Virus record (IMG/VR): IMGVR_UViG_2541047960_000003
Source: a virus
Lineage: Duplodnaviria > Heunggongvirae > Uroviricota > Caudoviricetes
Direction: 5' to 3' (one strand)
DNA: 26,163 nt
Of this stretch, positions 4,304-26,075 are shown piece by piece. Under the pieces are notes generated by a model that worked only from the letters and a program-made list of their open reading frames with translations, was not told where the DNA came from and searched no databases. Made by a program: the position numbers and the translations under genes. Positions within the stretch are counted from its first letter, which is position 1; each line of letters opens with the position of its first letter.

Positions 4304-5184
4304 ACACTCCTCGTCAGTATTCTGGCGGCCATTGCACTTAATCCCGGAGACATGCGGTTGAATGCTGTGCCGGCGGCGTTAAGCTGCCCGGAAACGGTAT
4401 CCAGAGCACCTGCAATATTTCTTTTGTCCACACCACTCAGCGCAGACTGTGCCTGCTGTACATACGTGGCTGCTTCGCTGGCTGTTCTGGCCAGACTGAT
4501 GGCATCGGGCATGGATTCAGAGAGTGCGTTAAACGCCGGAACACTTTTCCCCAGAGCCCCGGAGATATTACCCAGTCCGCTCATCAGCCCCGGCACACGG
4601 GTCAGTGCGACAACGGGGTTATCCTTCATTTTCTGTGTCACCCGAACGGCGCTGATAGTGGTCTGGAGTACAGACTGCGCCTGTTTCGCATAGTTGACGC
4701 CGTTGCGGATGAACTGCGCCACCCCTGAAGGTGAAGGAATGGCACCGGAGACCGCCCCGACACCCGGGAGCTTCGTGCGTATTGCCGGTGGTTGCAGAGG
4801 ATTTTTCGGGTCACCGGTGTATTCCCGGAGAGACACGGTGGCACTGACAGCCAGCACGTTGCCGGTACTGTCAGTCTGCTCGCTGGTTGCAGTCACATCG
4901 GTAATCACGAACCAGCCGCGATAGTCACCGTTGCCGAAGACCAGCGCCAGTGCCTGATGGGCTTTCATGGCTGTTCGCAGTCTCGCCAGCTCCACATCGG
5001 GTACACAATAATGCTGATGGAAAACCAGAGTTATCTGGATTTCGTCCAGCCTGTCGCCGACGAACTGCAGGCCAGGCTTACCCCCGATGCGGGCATGCTC
5101 CGCATAATCGACGCCGAACGTGGCCTCGAAGCCGTCCCAGTAGGTAATCAGCTCAAACTCAATATCACCCAGTACGGCAAACAT
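4300..5184 (-). CDS. tail protein U-like, with long Ser/Ala-rich C-terminal extension
   Basis: 294-aa ORF directly after the tape measure gene (1-nt overlap at 5184); assigned by synteny and N-terminal domain feel. Confidence 0.5.
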   Translation of the reverse strand: MFAVLGDIEFELITYWDGFEATFGVDYAEHARIGGKPGLQFVGDRLDEIQITLVFHQHYCVPDVELARLRTAMKAHQALALVFGNGDYRGWFVITDVTATSEQTDSTGNVLAVSATVSLREYTGDPKNPLQPPAIRTKLPGVGAVSGAIPSPSGVAQFIRNGVNYAKQAQSVLQTTISAVRVTQKMKDNPVVALTRVPGLMSGLGNISGALGKSVPAFNALSESMPDAISLARTASEAATYVQQAQSALSGVDKRNIAGALDTVSGQLNAAGTAFNRMSPGLSAMAARILTRSV

Positions 5185-8135
5185 CAGCGGTACTCCTTAC
5201 GTTGTTTCTGAGCCAGCAGACGCTCCAGCATTTTTTCCAGCTCATGCAGACTCATATTCAGGGCACCAGTCAGTCCTGCAGGCGCTGTGGTTTCCCTGCC
5301 ATTGAGGAAAAACTGAGGATTAAAGCTGACCTGGATACCACCAGACGTTCCACCGCCGGTTGCAGCTGCACCACGGCCTGAATATCCGGCAGCCAGGATT
5401 TCAGGCGAGGGGATACGGGGAACATCCGGTGTCATCTCATTTGCCAGACGTTGCCCTGGTAAAATCGATGCCCGGGTGGAGAGCGGAATAGCGGGCATGG
5501 AAGACAAACTATTGATTACGGCTCCGATCGCATTTTTAGCAGACGACATAAACCCATTGATATCGGGCAACGGCATACTGAAGCGAACACCTGAAGTGTT
5601 ATCTCGTATTTCTGGCCCCTGAATGCTCACGGGCATTCTGGGGAGCAGTTCACTGGCCATTCGCTGCCCGGCCAGAGCTGCAAGCGGAGTGGTCCGCTGC
5701 AGGCCAATGGCGGCCCCCTGCGCGATATTGTCACCAAAGCCCATAAACACGCGGCTCGGCGAATGAATGCCCAGCTTTTCGCTGAACCAGCCACTGATGC
5801 TGTCACCCATTCCGGTTACACTGGATTTGAGCGACTCCCATTTGTTTTTGATACCGTTAATCAGACCATCGACAAGATGGCCACCGAAGTCGGTAAACTT
5901 TGCCGGCAGATCAACACCAAGATATTTCAGCGCAACTGCAAAGGCTTTATAGAGCAGACCTGCCGGCGACCAGTTAATCAGCAGCTTACCAGTTCCCGCG
6001 ATACCGCCGTTAAAGGCTTCCTGAATGTCAGCCCAGCACTGTTTAAACCAGCTACTGATGCTGTCACCCATTCCGGTTACACTGGATTTGAGCGACCCCC
6101 ATTTGTTTTTGATACCGTTAATCAGACCGTCGATAAGATGGCCACCGAAGTCGGTGAACTTTGCCGGCAGAGCAACGCCGAAATATTTCAGCGCAGCCGC
6201 AAAGGCTTTATAGAGCAGGCCTGCCGGCGACCAGTTAATCAGCAACTTACCAATTCCCACAATGCCGCCGTTAAAGGCTTCCTGAATGTCTGCCCAGCGC
6301 TGTTTAAACCAGCCACTGACTGCCCCCCAGTTGCGGTAGATAAGGTAAGCTGCTGCCGCGACAGCGGTGATAACGAGACCGATGGGATTCATCATCAGCG
6401 CACGTCCAATCCAGAGAACAGCACGTCCGGCGAGCATAATTCCGCGAACCAGCCCCCCGGAGAGCACGCCACTCAGTGTTCTGGCTCCTCTGGCGACGGC
6501 GCTAAATCCGGTCACCAGCCAGCGGAGCTTACCGCCTTGCCCCAGTGCGAGCGACAGACGAAGCCAGTTGGCCCGAAGTAAAACAGCATTTTTCCAGACA
6601 CTTACAAAGGGGGAAATAAGGAGATTCAGCCCCAGTTTGAGACCAACAGTCGCTATCTTAATCGCAAGGAGCGCACTGATGAGCTTAAAAGCCCCACTGA
6701 CAAATTGCGGGTGAGTCGCTACCCAGTGTTTTGCCCCCTGAATGAGTGGAAGCAGTTCCTGAGTCAAAGAAATAAAAGATGGAGCTAATTGATCGCCCAG
6801 CGTAATTGCCAGATCGCGACTGCTGACCATAAGTGTTTTAGTGGCTTCAAGGGGAGATTTCAGCCGCTGATCATAAGCACTGGCAAGCAAATCGTTATCC
6901 GCAGCCCTGAGAGCACCGGCACGGATCTCTCGATATCTGTCCATGTTGGCCAGCATCGGGCGGATAAATGCCATGACCTGCATATCCGCGAACATATCGC
7001 CCAGACCAAAGTTTTTCGCCAGAGCCTGAAGTGCCTCATCTCTTGCCGTATCATTCTTTATTTTCATGGCTGATTTGAAGCCGGCCAGCGCTTCGGGGCT
7101 TTTGGTATTGAGGTAACGTTCTATAACACTCAACATCCCTTCAATCGGAGAGATCCCCGCAGCTTTATAACTCGCAATAGATCCCTGCAAATCAATACCC
7201 AGATCAGCAAACTGTTTCTGAGTATCGCGGGCAAAAATTTTGGTAAGAAAGTTTTTAAAATTATTGGCTGCTTCGTCGGTGGAACCTGCACCGATTTTTG
7301 CTATCTGGAGACTGGCCCCGATTTCAGCAACAGCCTCTTTTCCACTGGCAATACCCGCCATCATTGGGGCCAGGGACTGCATCCACTTGACCTGATCCGG
7401 GATTTCAAATGACCCCTGGTCACCGGCATAAGCCATAATATTCTGAACGGCACCAAAATCTCTGGCCGCACCTTTCAGGGAGTTTTGCCAGACTGCGGCC
7501 ACTTTTGCCCAGTCCTGAGCAGACGTGCGTGTTGCCGTTGCCGCGCGGGCAATATCCGGCATCAGAAAACCGATATCTGACACATTATCAATATTGTCGC
7601 TGATGAGTGAACCCACCGCCTCCTGCAGCTCATCCTGATACTGATTGTATTTAAGCGCCCAGCCTTTTATCTGTCCGGCAAGTGCATCCCGCGTTTTATT
7701 GTCATATTTTGCGGTGATCGACATATCAATCATTTTGTCCTGAAAAAACATGGACTGCTGAACGGCAGGGGAAACCGTATGATAAACAGTCTGAGCCATG
7801 CCATACGCTTCAATCCCCTGACCATACAGCGCCATGCGGTTAGCTTTCAGCGCATCACTGGTAGCGGATGCCGCTGACAGACGGCGCTGCTGGCGCTCAA
7901 TTTGCTCCATGGTGCGGCTTACCCGCAGCAGCTCGCTGTTGAGATGCTGCATCCGGGAAGAACCCAGTTGACCATAACGTTCTGTTGCACGGGTTAAAGC
8001 GTTCTGACGTTCCTGCAGGCGGCGTGAGGTATCGCTCAGGGAATCAAGCGCACGGCGGGTACCGCTCATTGCAGAACGGAATGTGCTGCCAATCATCCCG
8101 CCGATAACAACGCCGACTGAAAACTGTCCCGACAT
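5184..8135 (-). CDS. tail tape measure protein
   Basis: 983-aa ORF downstream of the tail chaperone pair; coiled-coil N-terminus, Gly/Ala-rich hydrophobic central region, internal tandem repeat; canonical position. Confidence 0.85.
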   Translation of the reverse strand: MSGQFSVGVVIGGMIGSTFRSAMSGTRRALDSLSDTSRRLQERQNALTRATERYGQLGSSRMQHLNSELLRVSRTMEQIERQQRRLSAASATSDALKANRMALYGQGIEAYGMAQTVYHTVSPAVQQSMFFQDKMIDMSITAKYDNKTRDALAGQIKGWALKYNQYQDELQEAVGSLISDNIDNVSDIGFLMPDIARAATATRTSAQDWAKVAAVWQNSLKGAARDFGAVQNIMAYAGDQGSFEIPDQVKWMQSLAPMMAGIASGKEAVAEIGASLQIAKIGAGSTDEAANNFKNFLTKIFARDTQKQFADLGIDLQGSIASYKAAGISPIEGMLSVIERYLNTKSPEALAGFKSAMKIKNDTARDEALQALAKNFGLGDMFADMQVMAFIRPMLANMDRYREIRAGALRAADNDLLASAYDQRLKSPLEATKTLMVSSRDLAITLGDQLAPSFISLTQELLPLIQGAKHWVATHPQFVSGAFKLISALLAIKIATVGLKLGLNLLISPFVSVWKNAVLLRANWLRLSLALGQGGKLRWLVTGFSAVARGARTLSGVLSGGLVRGIMLAGRAVLWIGRALMMNPIGLVITAVAAAAYLIYRNWGAVSGWFKQRWADIQEAFNGGIVGIGKLLINWSPAGLLYKAFAAALKYFGVALPAKFTDFGGHLIDGLINGIKNKWGSLKSSVTGMGDSISSWFKQCWADIQEAFNGGIAGTGKLLINWSPAGLLYKAFAVALKYLGVDLPAKFTDFGGHLVDGLINGIKNKWESLKSSVTGMGDSISGWFSEKLGIHSPSRVFMGFGDNIAQGAAIGLQRTTPLAALAGQRMASELLPRMPVSIQGPEIRDNTSGVRFSMPLPDINGFMSSAKNAIGAVINSLSSMPAIPLSTRASILPGQRLANEMTPDVPRIPSPEILAAGYSGRGAAATGGGTSGGIQVSFNPQFFLNGRETTAPAGLTGALNMSLHELEKMLERLLAQKQRKEYR
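5779..6322. repeat. in-frame tandem duplication (2 x 261 bp plus ~22 bp of a third unit) inside the tape measure gene
   Basis: Unit starts at ~5779 and ~6040 (aaccagcYactgatgctgtcacccattccggttacactggatttgagcga...), begins again at ~6301 then diverges. Encodes two ~87-aa protein repeats (SWFKQRWADIQEAFNGG... / SWFKQCWADIQEAFNGG...). Also explains the near-identical antisense ORFs 5767..5952 and 6025..6213. Confidence 0.85.
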
Positions 8136-21663: not shown

Positions 21664-22014
21664 TTAAAGCCCCATCGCAACAGCCAGGCAGACCGCTGCA
21701 ACAATCAGTGCACGGCGGATTAACGCAGCAGAAAACACCAGGTGAAGGCCGGTCTGTACCGGGAAACGCCCTTCAGCCATCAGCCTGTCGTCATGTTTCA
21801 GGTACTGACCGGGACGGGCTTTGGGGAAGAGCGAACGGTCAAGCCAGTAACCCAGCACTGCTGCCAGCGTGATGAGTGCCAGCTTGTAGATCACAACAGG
21901 CAGCTGCTGTGGTGAGACCAGAGCGATGGTGCCCAGCAACAGCACTGAGGTCAGCAGCCAGCCGCTGAGGCGAGGTTTTTTAACAGGGGGAATGAATTTT
22001 TTCAGGTTTTTCAT
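21664..22014 (-). CDS. putative holin (small multi-TM membrane protein)
   Basis: ATG at 22012-22014 with GAGGAGA SD; about three hydrophobic segments; first gene of the late operon, immediately upstream of endolysin. Confidence 0.45.
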   Translation of the reverse strand: MKNLKKFIPPVKKPRLSGWLLTSVLLLGTIALVSPQQLPVVIYKLALITLAAVLGYWLDRSLFPKARPGQYLKHDDRLMAEGRFPVQTGLHLVFSAALIRRALIVAAVCLAVAMGL

Positions 22015-22144
22015 GTGTGTCTCCTCGTTTGGTGGAGACAGCATCACAAATACAGGGCGCAAAGGATTTTAAAGCGCGTTAAGAGAGCCGGGGATACGGG
22101 ATGTGCAGGATAAACGATGAATTATTCACAGAGGAGAATACGAT
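22015..22144. promoter_or_regulatory. divergent promoter region (late lysis/structural operon leftward; P-loop gene rightward)
   Basis: 130-bp non-coding gap between the first late gene start (22014) and the plus-strand gene start (22145); no specific promoter boxes confirmed. Confidence 0.3.
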
Positions 22145-22621
22145 ATGACGCACACACTGAATCCGGTCATCACTGTCACTGTGTCCGGTCCTGTGGGCAG
22201 CGGTAAAAGTTACGTACTGGCGCGGATAGAAGAGATGGTGAAACAGGAACTCGGAAACAGCGTCATTGTCGATGCTGCTGACGTGGAGAATGAGCGCCGT
22301 ATGAATGGCGAAGATCTGACGACCTGGCAGAAGCCACGGGGTGGCACAGTGATCAGGCTAGAGGAATACACGGGACAGGGCCTGTTGTCATACGGCGAGG
22401 AGCGTATCTGTCGGACGAATGAGCTGCTGGATGTTATATGCCCCACGGGCCGGCAACCCTGGATACTGCCCGATGCACTGCATGCCACCATTGCGGCACT
22501 GATGACAGTTTACGATCAGGAGCTGCTCATGAAGGAGTTACGTAAACTCACCGGTCAGCCAACAGAATGTTGTTCGTCTCCGAAGTACGGCAAACAGGAA
22601 AACGCCCCGGATAATCCTTAA
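22145..22621 (+). CDS. small P-loop (Walker A) protein, possible small kinase-fold protein
   Basis: 158-aa ORF; SD GAGGAG 8 nt before ATG; VITVTVSGPVGSGKSYV Walker A at residues 15-22, then VIVDAAD acidic motif about 20 residues later. Confidence 0.5.
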   Translation: MTHTLNPVITVTVSGPVGSGKSYVLARIEEMVKQELGNSVIVDAADVENERRMNGEDLTTWQKPRGGTVIRLEEYTGQGLLSYGEERICRTNELLDVICPTGRQPWILPDALHATIAALMTVYDQELLMKELRKLTGQPTECCSSPKYGKQENAPDNP

Positions 22622-22640
22622 GATACCTCCTGAACAGAAA

Positions 22641-22656
22641 CAGCCCTGAAGGGCTG
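22641..22656 (-). terminator. candidate intrinsic terminator ending the repressor-operon transcript
   Basis: CAGCCC-TGAA-GGGCTG hairpin 2 nt after the stop of the 196-aa gene; on minus-strand RNA it is followed by UUUCUGUU; on plus-strand RNA it is followed by A-rich sequence, so it is unidirectional. Confidence 0.4.
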
Positions 22657-22658
22657 CA

Positions 22659-23249
22659 CTAAAAAAAGAAGTGTATTATTGCCCAAACAGCTATAACGAT
22701 GATTCCCAGCCCAAGAGCCGATTCTAACTTATCTTTGGCAGTCATTTTTACTGTTGTAGCGGGCGCAGGTAAGTCTTGCTGCTGTGGATTTTCTGTTAGT
22801 TGTTTACGAGAAGAAACATCGCCCCTATTAGTTTGCTTCATGTTGATTACAGATGCGTTATGGGCATTATCAGCAGCAATTGACTGAAGTTTTACAAAAG
22901 TTTTTGAATCTGTTTTAGCCAGAAGTAACCTATTTCCCGTAAACATTGCCTTAAAAGTGATAGTTTTTTTCGTCTTGTCCGCCGCACCAAGCAAACCTCC
23001 AATGACCAACCCTGCACCACCAAAGATTAATCCACCAAGCAAACCTGCGCCTGCCGCCTTACCTATACGGCTTTCCTCTTCACTATCCGCAAGTTCAATC
23101 GATAAAAGCTCTTCTTTCAGATTTAATACAATATTTTCAGGAAAGCCTTGTTTTGGTTTTTTGGCAAACACGATGGTACCGAACCCCATGCTTGCCCACC
23201 CTTTAGGAAAACTTCCTGCGATAACCTGAATCCCTGCCATGTTCATCAC
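22659..23249 (-). CDS. glycine-zipper membrane protein of unknown function
   Basis: ~193-196-aa ORF (GTG/ATG start cluster at 23238-23249 after AAAGGTG); GxxxG-rich segment AAGAGLLGGLIFGGAGLVIGGLLGAA and C-terminal TM LGLGIIVIAVWAIIHFFF; AT-rich codon usage. Confidence 0.5.
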   Translation of the reverse strand: MMNMAGIQVIAGSFPKGWASMGFGTIVFAKKPKQGFPENIVLNLKEELLSIELADSEEESRIGKAAGAGLLGGLIFGGAGLVIGGLLGAADKTKKTITFKAMFTGNRLLLAKTDSKTFVKLQSIAADNAHNASVINMKQTNRGDVSSRKQLTENPQQQDLPAPATTVKMTAKDKLESALGLGIIVIAVWAIIHFFF

Positions 23250-23330
23250 CTTTTACATTAAAATTTCAGAACGCAGCATGATGCCGCCTTTGTCTTTTTT
23301 CTGATCCCATGGTAATTCAGCTGTTATTTT

Positions 23331-24317
23331 CTATTTAAGAATAAAACGGTATTTACTGTCAGGAGTGCTTTGCTGATCAAGTAGCAGTGAACGACATGGA
23401 GCAGTCAAAACCCGAGCATAACTACCATCAGGGCTTATGTTAATGTAACAAACCTTGCCCTTAACACTATAATTTTCGGGGACGGATGCCTTTGCTGATA
23501 CAGTAAATTTAAGGGTATGCCAGCCCGTTTTTTGCTTGTAGCTTGAAACCGAATGGAAATCATCTGAGTACTTATTTAACCCTGGAAACATGCTGCGCAG
23601 TGCGGGGATGGAATCTTCTATTATTTTATCGTTGGTTTTAATGTTAAAAACGCTGGTTTCAGTAGAAGCTACTGCTTTGGCATTTCCCCATTTACCAGCG
23701 AACACAATCATTCCCACGAAAAATATTGCTACAAGAACTAACACTCCCCCCAACACTACTACATGAGGCTTCCGGCTTCTGGTTGGTACAGTTGCGACTG
23801 ATTTTGCACCGCTTTCCGATGGAGGTGATAGAGTTTTACTCTCATCACGAATATTCAGCAGATCATCAAAATAACCAAACACAGCCTGCAACTGCTCTTT
23901 GTCTAGGCCTTTAAGATGGGTTGTACCGAAATGCTTCAGACAGTATCTGTCACGGTCAAGACGATACCCAGGGTCAGTAAGCGCCATTATTTTGCTGACC
24001 AGAAGATTACAGTCCTTCATATTCTGGATCTGTTGTGCATATCTCTGAAGGATCTCAACCGCACCATGATAATCAGCCGCAGTCATTTCATTAACTGTTT
24101 TGGTATTAAGTTTCGTGTGGATCGTCATCCATAGCTCGCGCTTACTTTCCCCCAGATCAACCAATTCATCCATCAATCTGTGTAAATCGCGTTTTTGCAG
24201 CAACGAAATTGGTTGCTGGGCCGAAGGAAGTATGTCAGCAGAATAGTTATGAATGGTAACATCACCGCTGACAACGTTACCCACATCCCCGTTAACTGTT
24301 TGCTTCTCTTTACTCAT
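23331..24317 (-). CDS. single-pass membrane protein of unknown function, translationally coupled to the repressor
   Basis: 328-aa ORF; ATG at 24315-24317 overlaps repressor stop (ATGA); ~190-aa N-terminal domain, one TM (HVVVLGGVLVLVAIFFVGMIVFAG), ~115-aa C-terminal domain. Confidence 0.55.
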   Translation of the reverse strand: MSKEKQTVNGDVGNVVSGDVTIHNYSADILPSAQQPISLLQKRDLHRLMDELVDLGESKRELWMTIHTKLNTKTVNEMTAADYHGAVEILQRYAQQIQNMKDCNLLVSKIMALTDPGYRLDRDRYCLKHFGTTHLKGLDKEQLQAVFGYFDDLLNIRDESKTLSPPSESGAKSVATVPTRSRKPHVVVLGGVLVLVAIFFVGMIVFAGKWGNAKAVASTETSVFNIKTNDKIIEDSIPALRSMFPGLNKYSDDFHSVSSYKQKTGWHTLKFTVSAKASVPENYSVKGKVCYINISPDGSYARVLTAPCRSLLLDQQSTPDSKYRFILK

Positions 24318-24775
24318 CTTCTCTTGGTATTTTTGTTCATTATTCCACCTGTTCCTATGGTTACGTTACCTTTGATAACATTCCCCAGAACATCTCCATG
24401 AATAACCTGTTCCGCCCGTTCTCTGGAGGAGCCAGTAGTCAAGGCCGACAAAACTGAACCTTTGACCTGTAATGGTGCCTGCCGGTAGTGCTGCAGTAAC
24501 TCCATTTCATCACGTGATAAAGTTATACCTGATGACTCCCCGGTAAGAATGAACTGTACATTGGCCCCAATTCTTGCAAAGGCTGCAAGTAACTCACCTC
24601 CGGGAACAGCAACCCCTCGTTCATATTTCCCCCACATTTCTCTTGAAACGCCACAAAGGGCTGCTACTTCAGCCTGCTTGAGTGATAACCGCGAACGCTC
24701 AGCTTTGAACCGCGACGCGCAAAGAGAATCAAAATTCACATAAACCTCATTGGCAATGAGAACAATAGTTCTCAT
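24314..24775 (-). CDS. XRE-family HTH transcriptional repressor (putative immunity repressor)
   Basis: 153-aa ORF with classic HTH_XRE segment (LSLKQAEVAALCGVSREMWGKYERG); divergent from the early operon across a 50-bp gap. Confidence 0.65.
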   Translation of the reverse strand: MRTIVLIANEVYVNFDSLCASRFKAERSRLSLKQAEVAALCGVSREMWGKYERGVAVPGGELLAAFARIGANVQFILTGESSGITLSRDEMELLQHYRQAPLQVKGSVLSALTTGSSRERAEQVIHGDVLGNVIKGNVTIGTGGIMNKNTKRR

Positions 24776-24825
24776 AATCTATCACATATAAAACAAACAT
24801 CATTGCATCAACAAAGGAGACAACA
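24776..24825. promoter_or_regulatory. divergent promoter/operator region between repressor and early operon
   Basis: 50-bp AT-rich gap containing TCACATATA, ATTGCA and the SD AAAGGAGA for the Ner-like gene. Confidence 0.4.
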
Positions 24826-25014
24826 ATGACTTCCGAACAAGTTAAAAATCTCTTCCGTCAGCGTGGTATCACGTTTACCCGCTGGGCCGAAGAACACGGC
24901 TACAGCCGCAATGAGGTCTATCGTGTTCTCAATGGACAGACCAAAGCTCGTTACGGCAAAGCCCATGAAATTGCCGTAAAACTGGGATTAAAACCCACGT
25001 CAAATGCGGCATAA
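24826..25014 (+). CDS. Ner-like small DNA-binding regulator
   Basis: 62-aa ORF with SD AAAGGAGA; HTH-like TRWAEEHGYSRNEVYRVLNG and C-terminal KAHEIAVKLGLKP resembling the Ner/Nlp pattern. Confidence 0.6.
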   Translation: MTSEQVKNLFRQRGITFTRWAEEHGYSRNEVYRVLNGQTKARYGKAHEIAVKLGLKPTSNAA

Positions 25015-25020
25015 ATTTTC

Positions 25021-25051
25021 CACATATGCAACAGGTTATCACATATTGCAA
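25021..25051. promoter_or_regulatory. direct repeats CACATATGCAA / CACATATTGCAA, candidate operator sites
   Basis: Copies at 25021-25031 and 25040-25051 (19-bp spacing) upstream of the winged-helix gene; related CACATAT at 24783-24789 in the divergent promoter gap. Confidence 0.35.
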
Positions 25052-25066
25052 AAATGGAAATGTGAC

Positions 25067-25375
25067 ATGAGTAAAGTAAATATTTCCAGTTCTGGGACCC
25101 GCATCCTACGTGTACTCAAAGCTCTACGCGGTCATGCTCTGAACGGTGTTTCTAACGGTGAACTGGCATCAGCCCTGGGGGAGTCCCCGGCGAATATCAA
25201 TCGAGCACTTAATACCCTTATTGAAGAGGGACTGGCCATGAAATTAGAGAACGGACGTTTCGCACCGGGAATCCAGTTACTACAGATCGCCATGGCTCAC
25301 AGTCACGAGATGGCGCGTGCACAGGATCGTATTAACGAAATCAACCAACGAGTTATTTCAGGTAGTCGTTTGTAA
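25067..25375 (+). CDS. winged-helix (IclR/MarR-like HTH) transcriptional regulator
   Basis: ILRVLKAL...GVSNGELASALGESPANINRALNTLIEEGLA HTH pattern; start set at ATG 25067 (MSKVN...), since the track start at 25004 overlaps the Ner-like gene and the repeats; start uncertain. Confidence 0.5.
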   Translation: MSKVNISSSGTRILRVLKALRGHALNGVSNGELASALGESPANINRALNTLIEEGLAMKLENGRFAPGIQLLQIAMAHSHEMARAQDRINEINQRVISGSRL

Positions 25376-25385
25376 GGAGTAATCA

Positions 25386-26075
25386 ATGGGACGCACCAAA
25401 TCACCCGTTAACACTGAACTGAATGTTGAGGTTCCGCTGTCAGATAACATCAATGTCAATTTGAACGCTATGACACAGCATCGCATGGAAATTATGCAGC
25501 AGTTTGGTGATGGACTGCCTTATGAACGTGATCGCATTGTTCACGAAGCACGTTTTTATATGGCGCAGAGTGCTGAATCTATGCTGGAAGCGGGTAAGCG
25601 GCTGATCATCTTAAAAGAAAATGAGCCACACGGTGATTTTACAAACATTTTAGAAAATGAACTCGGACTTGCACCACAAGTTGCTCGCCGCATGATGCAA
25701 GCCAGTATGAAGTTTTTGGGAGAAGGTGATGAGCCAACAAAACGCTCAACGTTGAGCGTTTTGGGGAAAGCCAAACTGTACGACCTGATGGTTCTGGATA
25801 ATGAAGAACTTGATGAATTGGCCGACGGCGGCACAGTTGCCGGCCTGACGCTTGACGACGTTGATCGCATGTCAGTACGTGAATTGCGTCAGGCCCTGCG
25901 CGAAGCGCGCGAAACCAACGCAGCACAACAGCGCGTACTCGCTGACAAAAATGAAAAAATAGACTCACTCTCCACCAGACTGGAGAAGAAATCCCGTATT
26001 CAGCCGCCTGAGCCTGATGAAGAGGTTAAGAAGCTGCGGGCGGAAGTGACAGCATTAGCGGTTGAGGCGGAATGA
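25386..26075 (+). CDS. conserved early-region protein of transposable prophages (DUF3102-like by recall)
   Basis: 229-aa ORF with strong SD TAAGGAGTAATCA before ATG; charged helical C-terminus; stop overlaps a following ATG (ATGA at 26072-26075). Confidence 0.5.
   Translation: MGRTKSPVNTELNVEVPLSDNINVNLNAMTQHRMEIMQQFGDGLPYERDRIVHEARFYMAQSAESMLEAGKRLIILKENEPHGDFTNILENELGLAPQVARRMMQASMKFLGEGDEPTKRSTLSVLGKAKLYDLMVLDNEELDELADGGTVAGLTLDDVDRMSVRELRQALREARETNAAQQRVLADKNEKIDSLSTRLEKKSRIQPPEPDEEVKKLRAEVTALAVEAE

Follow-up and report, generated by a model that had tools for sequence, protein, structure and literature searches.

A prophage-borne PH-like protein with a predicted membrane-inserting glycine-zipper hairpin, encoded by a putative accessory cassette and possibly involved in superinfection exclusion

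The window analysed here is a stretch of 26,163 nucleotides (nt) from a tailed virus (IMG/VR record IMGVR_UViG_2541047960_000003, Caudoviricetes), and the subject of this report is a gene for a 193-residue protein on its minus strand, in the lysogeny region. The protein combines a PH-like fold with a conserved glycine-zipper hairpin and is best described, from its sequence and structural models, as a novel structural form among the small inner-membrane accessory proteins of prophages. Because relatives of the gene recur at two classical sites of exclusion genes, the repressor transcript and the junction between the tail assembly chaperone and tape measure genes, we tentatively propose, with a probability of about 0.4, that the product is a prophage-expressed, non-toxic superinfection-exclusion protein that hinders tape-measure-dependent genome entry. 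The basis of this proposal is genomic context.

The open reading frame (ORF) put forward in a preliminary description of this DNA (minus strand, 22659..23249, 196 codons counted from a GTG) is real, and its conservation across the whole family rules out a spurious ORF. The true start is almost certainly the ATG at 23240 (MAGIQ..., 193 residues) and not the GTG at 23249, because four lines of evidence agree: an AAAGGTG ribosome-binding site lies 6 nt 5' of this ATG; the full-length phrog_12025 alignment (E = 2.4e-128) begins at residue 4 in GTG numbering; RefSeq annotates the gene as 582 nt (WP_000907412.1); and in a Citrobacter homologue (71% identical) the conserved ATG is the only in-frame start, with none upstream. 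The coding sequence thus spans 22659..23240 (minus), with a TAG stop codon at 22659-22661, and residues are numbered from the ATG below.

Two AlphaFold2 (AF2) models agree on seven strands followed by a C-terminal helix, and the glycine zipper is therefore placed, in these models, within a PH-like domain, as an insertion in the loop that joins strands 5 and 6. The model of the window protein, computed with a 50-sequence alignment, has strands at residues 2-9, 14-19, 22-25, 37-40, 45-50, 93-100 and 104-111, a long helix after strand 7 (112-139) and a terminal helix (169-192), with a predicted local distance difference test (pLDDT) score of 70-91 in the core; that of a 116-residue stand-alone relative (mean pLDDT 76.7) reproduces this fold and shows part of the insertion as helix. 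Strands 1-5 occupy residues 1-52 (23085..23240; this and all following segments on the minus strand). The insertion, modelled with low AF2 confidence, comprises residues 53-92 (22965..23084) and is made up of a short amphipathic helix, the glycine-zipper hairpin, whose core is residues 62-87 (nt 22980-23057), and a basic flank, DKTKK. Residues 93-139 (22824..22964; pLDDT 83-91) complete the PH-like fold with strands 6-7 and the C-terminal helix. A polar, low-complexity linker follows (residues 140-168, 22737..22823; pLDDT below 50), which is the least conserved part of the protein even among homologues of 66-72% identity, and leads to a basic KDK flank and a transmembrane (TM) tail anchor ending W..HFFF (residues 169-193, 22662..22736).

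The GxxxG-rich segment pointed out in the preliminary description is present at residues 62-87 (AAGAGLLGGLIFGGAGLVIGGLLGAA) and contains two GxxxGxxxG runs, G66/G70/G74 and G77/G81/G85, around a central turn, which is GG in the window protein and GP in the majority of its relatives. No residues of the family are better conserved than the glycines of this segment: G69 and G81 never vary, and G64, G66, G74, G77 and G85 are at least 90% conserved. This pattern is not a matter of chance composition, because it is kept in relatives that share just 25-40% identity. The C-terminal TM helix ending in FFF was likewise recovered; residues ~172-193 are hydrophobic (Kyte-Doolittle values up to 2.49), correspond to AF2 helix 169-192 and end in HFFF, a motif that does not vary within the close subfamily. 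A fold search with Foldseek against the BFVD viral structures gave nothing significant (best E = 0.064, with a SHOCT protein), and a PDB sequence-profile search gave no match below E = 0.3. The domain differs from the bacterial PH domains (bPH_1-6; YdbS/YdbT; PDB 3b77) in having no Pfam bPH match at E ≤ 1, and from bPH_2 proteins in that their TM helices precede the domain and are not inserted in a loop.

The topology of the protein can be modelled from these features. The N-terminus (MAGIQVIAGSF) has no signal peptide, no lipobox and no hydrophobic segment, and the PH-like domain is predicted to be cytoplasmic because a signal peptide is absent. The only TM helix falls within the final ~25 residues and is preceded by basic residues (K165, K169 and K171), as in tail-anchored proteins, and tail-anchored insertion into the inner membrane is predicted from hydropathy, sequence and the AF2 helix. 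Basic residues also flank the hairpin (K61 before it; K89, K91 and K92 after it). Both hairpin ends should lie on one side of the membrane, because the 26-residue insertion joins neighbouring strands of one sheet, and its arms of ~12 residues each correspond to roughly half a bilayer; so short an insertion, tied to adjacent strands, is therefore not expected to cross the bilayer twice. We infer a PH-like domain on the cytoplasmic side, held at the inner leaflet by a re-entrant hairpin and the tail anchor. A comparable tethering of domains to the inner leaflet has been predicted and proposed for SHOCT-like domains (PMC11237479).

Several close homologues carry the precomputed Pfam label PF27000, PH_gly_zipper (97% identical in the case of P0002 and P0003; the match of P0008 is marked 'weak'), and this annotation, together with the fold and motif tested here, assigns the window protein to that family. 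A search of 5.8 billion proteins returned homologues from Escherichia, Morganella and Citrobacter that are near-identical or 66-72% identical, and an exhaustive phmmer search of 1.84 billion cluster representatives returned 217 clusters at 50% identity (E ≤ 1e-3), with homology in the wider family restricted to residues 1-125. The family spans Mu-like, lambdoid and other tailed phages of Proteobacteria. The C-terminal appendage is interchangeable, being absent in most relatives and otherwise an unrelated tail anchor, a SHOCT domain (7 of 34 family members), cytoplasmic zinc ribbons or a TM segment with an extracytoplasmic domain. This variety suggests that the PH-like domain and its hairpin form the functional core, with the linker and anchor seen in the window protein as accessory parts. 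The window protein thus shares with PF27000 and phrog_12025 the PH-like fold capped by a C-terminal helix and the glycine zipper in a loop, and differs in adding the variable linker and the HFFF-ending anchor, which most members lack. Members with large extracytoplasmic domains look chromosomal and not phage-borne, and a Pfam scan of those relatives that are long and multi-domain matched DUF6030 and tRNA_anti-like families only, with no functional lead.

The preliminary description had raised homology to a housekeeping membrane protein as a finding that would count against its reading; the homology found here is to an uncharacterised, largely phage-borne family. A Pfam scan of the 193-residue protein (E ≤ 1, with a library that does not hold PF27000) gave just a weak C19orf12 match, all PHROGs matched are of unassigned function, and homology to any characterised exclusion, holin, toxin, defence or glycine-zipper lipoprotein family was not found in Pfam, PHROG, NCBIfam or PADLOC. 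A tblastn search with the window protein, P0027 and P0178 against 50,697 isolated-phage records gave no match, in a scan of genome contigs Intestinirhabdus alba was the single species representative matched, and in the literature we found no paper on the PF27000 / PH_gly_zipper family.

The host element is a BcepMu-like transposable prophage of Escherichia coli. The 2.8 kb around the gene are 100% identical to prophages of E. coli CE10, IAI39 and others, and the CE10 annotation places the repressor operon between leftward late genes (holin, SLT endolysin, Mu gp27-like, DUF935 portal, sheath, tube, tape measure, baseplate) and rightward early genes (Ner-like, IclR-like helix-turn-helix (HTH), DUF3102, DDE transposase, MuB-like ATPase, Gam, Mor). 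Escherichia phage PhiKM (Bcepmuvirus) is the only isolated phage that shares DNA with window positions 22100-24900, and in a megablast of the region against phages its match was limited to the neighbouring P-loop gene. The 193-residue gene occurs in ~100 of 5,426 complete E. coli genomes (~2%), the flanking phage sequence in 605; carriers include extraintestinal pathogenic E. coli (CE10, IAI39, ST131). The CE10 copy has internal stops in its gp25-like and DUF3486 genes and in one small ORF, carries an IS3 insertion in the early region and adjoins sitABCD; this copy is probably defective, though its lysogeny region is intact.

Within this element the gene behaves as a discrete cassette. The G+C content is 41-43% across the 193-residue and 328-residue genes versus 55-60% in the late genes, and DNA homology to the Citrobacter locus extends only from ~65 nt 5' of the ATG to the stop codon. 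The leader that travels with the gene (23241..23305, minus) contains the ribosome-binding site and a remnant of a Citrobacter-type repressor 3' end, in which the last ~8 codons (~23277-23308, minus) read KKTKAAS, as compared with KKTKTAS* in the repressor of Intestinirhabdus alba (L058). This relic marks an old recombination joint in the immunity region; the ancestral order was therefore a repressor followed directly by the 193-residue gene, and the present HTH_31 repressor and 328-residue gene have replaced the former upstream partner. PhiKM has a methylase gene and further genes in the same slot, and in 27 E. coli genomes the pair formed by the repressor and the 328-residue gene is followed by genes for an unrelated 203-residue soluble protein and a DUF2441 protein (in E. 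coli 503829, positions 1384-2980 of L060, equivalent to window ~22100-23330). The slot downstream of this pair is a cargo hot spot, and other defence candidates may be found there.

The terminator that had been reported after the gene was confirmed as an intrinsic-terminator-like hairpin (22630..22657, minus; -15.5 kcal/mol, z = -1.46). Its GC-rich stem of 7 bp (22640-22657; GCAGCCC UUCA GGGCUGU) begins 2 nt past the stop codon and is followed by the U-rich tail UUUCUGUUC. It is the single terminator-like site within 21900-25500 and separates the PH_gly_zipper gene from the convergent P-loop gene. Low G+C content, the bounded homology block, this hairpin, the alternative cargo and the patchy presence together identify the gene, as far as sequence can tell, as a mobile accessory cassette (moron) of the prophage. 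As the third minus-strand gene it follows those for the HTH repressor (24314-24775) and the 328-residue protein (23331-24317), and its co-transcription with the repressor is plausible. No promoter of its own was found in the promoter scan. Two candidate signals were rejected: an internal promoter, for which there were only weak consensus matches inside the 328-residue gene, fewer than expected by chance, and a terminator or attenuator in the gap upstream, where a small hairpin is no stabler than shuffled sequence (z = -0.44).

Relatives of the gene, the more distant of which share 25-40% identity in these comparisons, recur downstream of four different repressors. The Citrobacter homologue directly follows the gene for a 121-residue Phage_CI_repr protein and the Intestinirhabdus homologue that for a 136-residue repressor, in both cases with no 328-residue gene. 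The window gene itself is linked to an HTH_31 repressor, and a relative (L016) to an HTH_3 protein. In a lambdoid contig, Cro is encoded leftward and CI (HTH and Peptidase_S24) rightward, followed by a 130-residue gene and the PH_gly_zipper gene. In an Acinetobacter Mu-like prophage the relative occupies the equivalent slot, where five small genes separate the early region from the endolysin gene and the relative is the last of them; other relatives stand alone on the opposite strand between modules, or beside an integrase.

The second recurrent position is the tape measure gene. IMG/VR was scanned with two peptide patterns only, taken from a tighter sub-alignment (A4), and 42 viral loci were found; all 41 readable copies are bare domains of 115-141 residues, 40 of them of 115-128 residues. 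After dereplication at 80% identity to 35 clusters, the gene abuts the 5' end of a tape measure gene in 10 (six co-directional, four divergent), as compared with a chance expectation of ~1 such adjacency at roughly 50 genes per genome. Tape measure genes were identified by Pfam TMP_3, PHROG matches or BLAST to confirmed tape measure proteins, and the tape measure proteins beside family members share just 25-45% identity with one another. In one locus (L056) the order is tail assembly chaperone, a phrog_169 gene (tail-completion/Neck1), PH_gly_zipper gene and tape measure, a position equivalent to that of the exclusion moron gene 15 in HK97.

Both positions are known homes of exclusion genes: lambda rexAB and P22 sieB are exclusion genes in a repressor transcript. 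HK97 gene 15, the first gene to be called a moron, lies at the chaperone/tape measure junction; its product is an inner-membrane protein whose block of DNA entry depends on the phage tail (PMC3594210). The Imm protein of phage T4 binds the tape measure protein and prevents formation of the translocation conduit, and the authors of that work suggest that the strategy is conserved (bioRxiv 10.64898/2026.03.06.709160). In the proposed model, the window gene would be transcribed in the lysogen, most likely from the repressor operon; the PH-like domain would be cytoplasmic and held flat on the inner-membrane face by the re-entrant hairpin and the C-terminal anchor; and the protein would interfere with the inner-membrane channel built by the tape measure protein of an incoming phage. 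Infection would be blocked at the step of genome entry with the host unharmed, as for HK97 gp15 and T4 Imm. The preliminary description had suggested a pore-forming or exclusion effector, and the comparative context, namely a low-G+C cassette in the lysogeny region and recurrence at the two classical sites, supports the exclusion half of that suggestion.

HK97 gp15, which is YebO-like, is also a small inner-membrane accessory protein of a prophage and is the precedent for the proposed entry block, and relatives of the window gene occupy its place between tail assembly chaperone and tape measure; however, no relationship in sequence or fold and no YebO match in Pfam was detected, the window protein is anchored by its C-terminus and a re-entrant hairpin, and its gene lies in the repressor operon and not in the tail operon. 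T4 Imm is likewise a small inner-membrane protein, but it is all-helical with several TM helices, has no PH-like domain and no homology to the window protein, and comes from a virulent phage. Lambda RexB and P22 SieB, as presumably the window protein too, are membrane proteins encoded in a lysogenic repressor transcript; RexB, in contrast, is polytopic and channel-like and needs RexA, and neither homology nor a conserved partner was found here.

A number of points weigh against an exclusion function. Beyond HTH/S24 repressors and tail chaperones, the neighbours of family members include toxin-antitoxin, Abi, Ant and partition genes and Arc-like regulators, company that is not specific to exclusion, and adjacency to repressor or tape measure genes signals accessory genes generally. 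The window gene lies 15 kb from the tape measure gene of the window, and a gap of 90 nt separates it from the 328-residue gene. The known exclusion proteins that target tape measure proteins have periplasm-exposed parts or several TM helices; almost nothing of the window protein is predicted to be periplasmic, and contact with a tape measure protein could therefore occur only within or below the membrane. The insertion that holds the hairpin is modelled with low confidence (residues 53-90; pLDDT 33-52 in the hairpin). PF27000 is catalogued yet uncharacterised, with no assigned function, and the protein matches nothing in PADLOC or NCBIfam and none of the exclusion families in Pfam.

A far-reaching form of the exclusion proposal, which we regard as very unlikely, holds that PH_gly_zipper proteins are a widespread exclusion class acting by mimicry, with the hairpin as a decoy of Gly-rich 'GGP' hairpins in tape measure proteins. 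The hairpin would pack against the tape measure protein of the entering phage within the cytoplasmic leaflet, a ring of PH-like domains would cap the nascent DNA channel from inside, and a location beside the tape measure gene would keep decoy and target matched. Segments of the 'GGP' type are found in the tape measure proteins of L030 (LLGGPAGVAILAAG) and L023 (IGAVIGGPIGGIIGG), for comparison with the family hairpin (LLGPAGLLAGLLLGG), and the resemblance suggests heterotypic glycine-zipper packing as a possible contact. The likeness is no more than a lead, because the sequences are of low complexity and the tape measure protein of the window (5184-8135) lacks glycine-zipper segments, a further point against the exclusion proposal; its hydrophobic segments (477-513 and 572-600) hold only one xxx-spaced triple of small residues (G/A/S) and 4-11% glycine. 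Hydrophobic stretches that are rich in Gly, include a GGP turn and resemble the family hairpin are frequent in tape measure proteins encoded beside PH_gly_zipper genes, as in the tape measure ORFs of L018, L020, L023, L030 and L044 (for example AVTSIASVIGAVIGGPIGGIIGGAVGGLI; in L023, 6407-11527, at residues 399-419 and 994-1022).

Were the protein to exclude phages, the family would be a structurally new and taxonomically broad class joining the few exclusion proteins that are understood, with members acting from the cytoplasmic side of the membrane, and the recurrent pairing with tape measure genes would offer a concrete molecular target. It would also provide the first function for a PH-like domain that bears its own membrane-inserting hairpin, an arrangement of which, to our knowledge, there is no studied bacterial example.

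Among other explanations, an unlikely one is that the protein stabilises the membrane or otherwise serves host fitness, with rings of PH-like domains wedging their hairpins into the cytoplasmic leaflet to help under envelope stress and without blocking phages. SlyB and YfgH combine a beta-rich domain with a glycine-zipper helical hairpin in ring oligomers that stabilise the outer membrane, and with SlyB, YfgH and OsmB the window protein shares a beta-rich domain interrupted by a glycine-zipper hairpin that would embed in a leaflet, and plausibly ring formation. These are outer-membrane lipoproteins, however, with a longer hairpin, another beta-domain and chromosomal stress genes, and no profile match links them to the window protein, which has no lipobox and no 2TM-family Pfam match at E ≤ 1 (none to Gly-zipper_Omp, YMGG or Rick_17kDa). 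The hairpin of E. coli SlyB spans ~40 residues, as against 26 here. Protection of the inner membrane by Psp-type systems offers a further analogy, SHOCT fusions are typical of sub-membrane, stress-linked proteins, and some family members with large extracytoplasmic domains appear to be chromosomal. Ring oligomers are known for bacterial PH domains (PMC3581485). A general stress role nevertheless leaves the enrichment on phage contigs and beside tape measure and repressor genes unexplained. Should the protein act in this way, it would be a prophage-borne inner-membrane counterpart of SlyB.

Quite unlikely is an abortive-infection effector or latent pore former, in which the protein would be harmless in the membrane until a component of an infecting phage bound the PH-like domain; it would then oligomerise, its hairpins and tail anchors would breach the membrane, and depolarisation would abort the infection in a RexB-like way. 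The invariant glycines imply tight helix packing, the place downstream of a CI repressor mirrors lambda rexAB, a PH-like domain could plausibly sense a ligand, and toxin-antitoxin and Abi genes are among the neighbours of relatives. A glycine-zipper effector of a type VII secretion system is on record; glycine zippers also occur in pore-forming toxins, as reportedly described by Kim et al. (2005, PNAS), and in the type VI secretion system effector Tse4. Against this, the 26-residue hairpin with its ends tied to adjacent strands is too short for a bilayer, most relatives lack any further TM segment, there is no conserved partner sensor and no PADLOC match, and linkage to tape measure genes suits a block of entry better than suicide after it.

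The pore-forming or depolarising toxin envisaged in the preliminary description is poorly supported. The hairpin, with arms of ~12 residues, cannot cross the bilayer twice, the repressor operon is seemingly constitutive, and most relatives stand alone, with neither an immunity gene nor an antitoxin gene beside them; Pfam and PHROG gave no match to a holin or toxin family, and the best-studied hairpin-type glycine zippers, SlyB and YfgH, are membrane-stabilising and not pore-forming. A constitutive pore-forming toxin is thus unlikely. Nor did the suggested partnership with the 328-residue protein hold up: the homologues of Citrobacter and Intestinirhabdus (71-72% identity) lack the 328-residue gene, and the 27 E. 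coli genomes mentioned above pair it with different cargo. A toxin-antitoxin or other two-gene system formed with the 328-residue protein was rejected, as the co-occurrence is not conserved.

A part in the phage's own lytic cycle, through the timing of lysis by holin and SLT endolysin, tape measure or tail assembly, or delivery of its own genome, is highly improbable: the gene does lie between the immunity region and the holin/endolysin genes in Mu-like prophages, directly upstream of the endolysin gene on the same strand in Acinetobacter, and directly upstream of and co-directional with the tape measure gene in 6 viral clusters, but a complete cassette of holin, SLT and Rz-like genes is already present beyond the terminator and the convergent gene, the gene is antisense to the tail operon in 4 clusters, and it is dispensable for the lytic cycle because most BcepMu-like E. 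coli prophages lack it (605 with the flanks, ~100 with the gene). A holin or antiholin role was rejected; there is no holin family match, and a separate holin gene lies at 21664-22062.

The genes upstream of the cassette were also annotated. The first gene of the leftward lysogeny operon encodes the HTH repressor (HTH_31/HTH_3; 24314..24775, minus), and its stop codon overlaps the start of the 328-residue gene (ATGA; 23331..24317, minus). The 328-residue product is a membrane protein whose N-terminal region resembles the flagellar regulator Flk (NF007987, E = 2.9e-12, residues 19-147); it also has a central TM helix and a predicted periplasmic C-terminal domain of ~120 residues. Its gene is tightly linked to the repressor, and it is not an obligate partner of the 193-residue protein. 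The gene lies immediately downstream of the repressor gene in both arrangements inspected (CE10 and strain 503829), and the matches of the 328-residue protein overlap an HTH gene in all 12 matches listed. The first 22 residues of the 328-residue protein share GDV.GNV..G.VTI with the C-terminus of the repressor (BLASTP of the pair, E = 3e-4). A repressor-linked function is suggested, perhaps membrane sequestration or sensing.

Some 50 nt (24776-24825) separate the annotated start of the repressor gene (24775, minus) from that of the Ner-like gene (24826, plus); at this junction the promoter scan found a sigma-70-like plus-strand site (24750-24778) and none for the repressor. On the other side of the cassette, the convergent P-loop gene (22145-22621, plus), annotated 'ABC transporter ATPase', matches the phrog_3787 profile (242 positions) over positions 1-157 only. 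The PhiKM homologue has 242 residues, and DNA homology to PhiKM ends at ~22610. By this partial coverage, the length in PhiKM and the end of homology, the P-loop gene appears to have been truncated at its 3' end during exchange of the immunity and accessory block.

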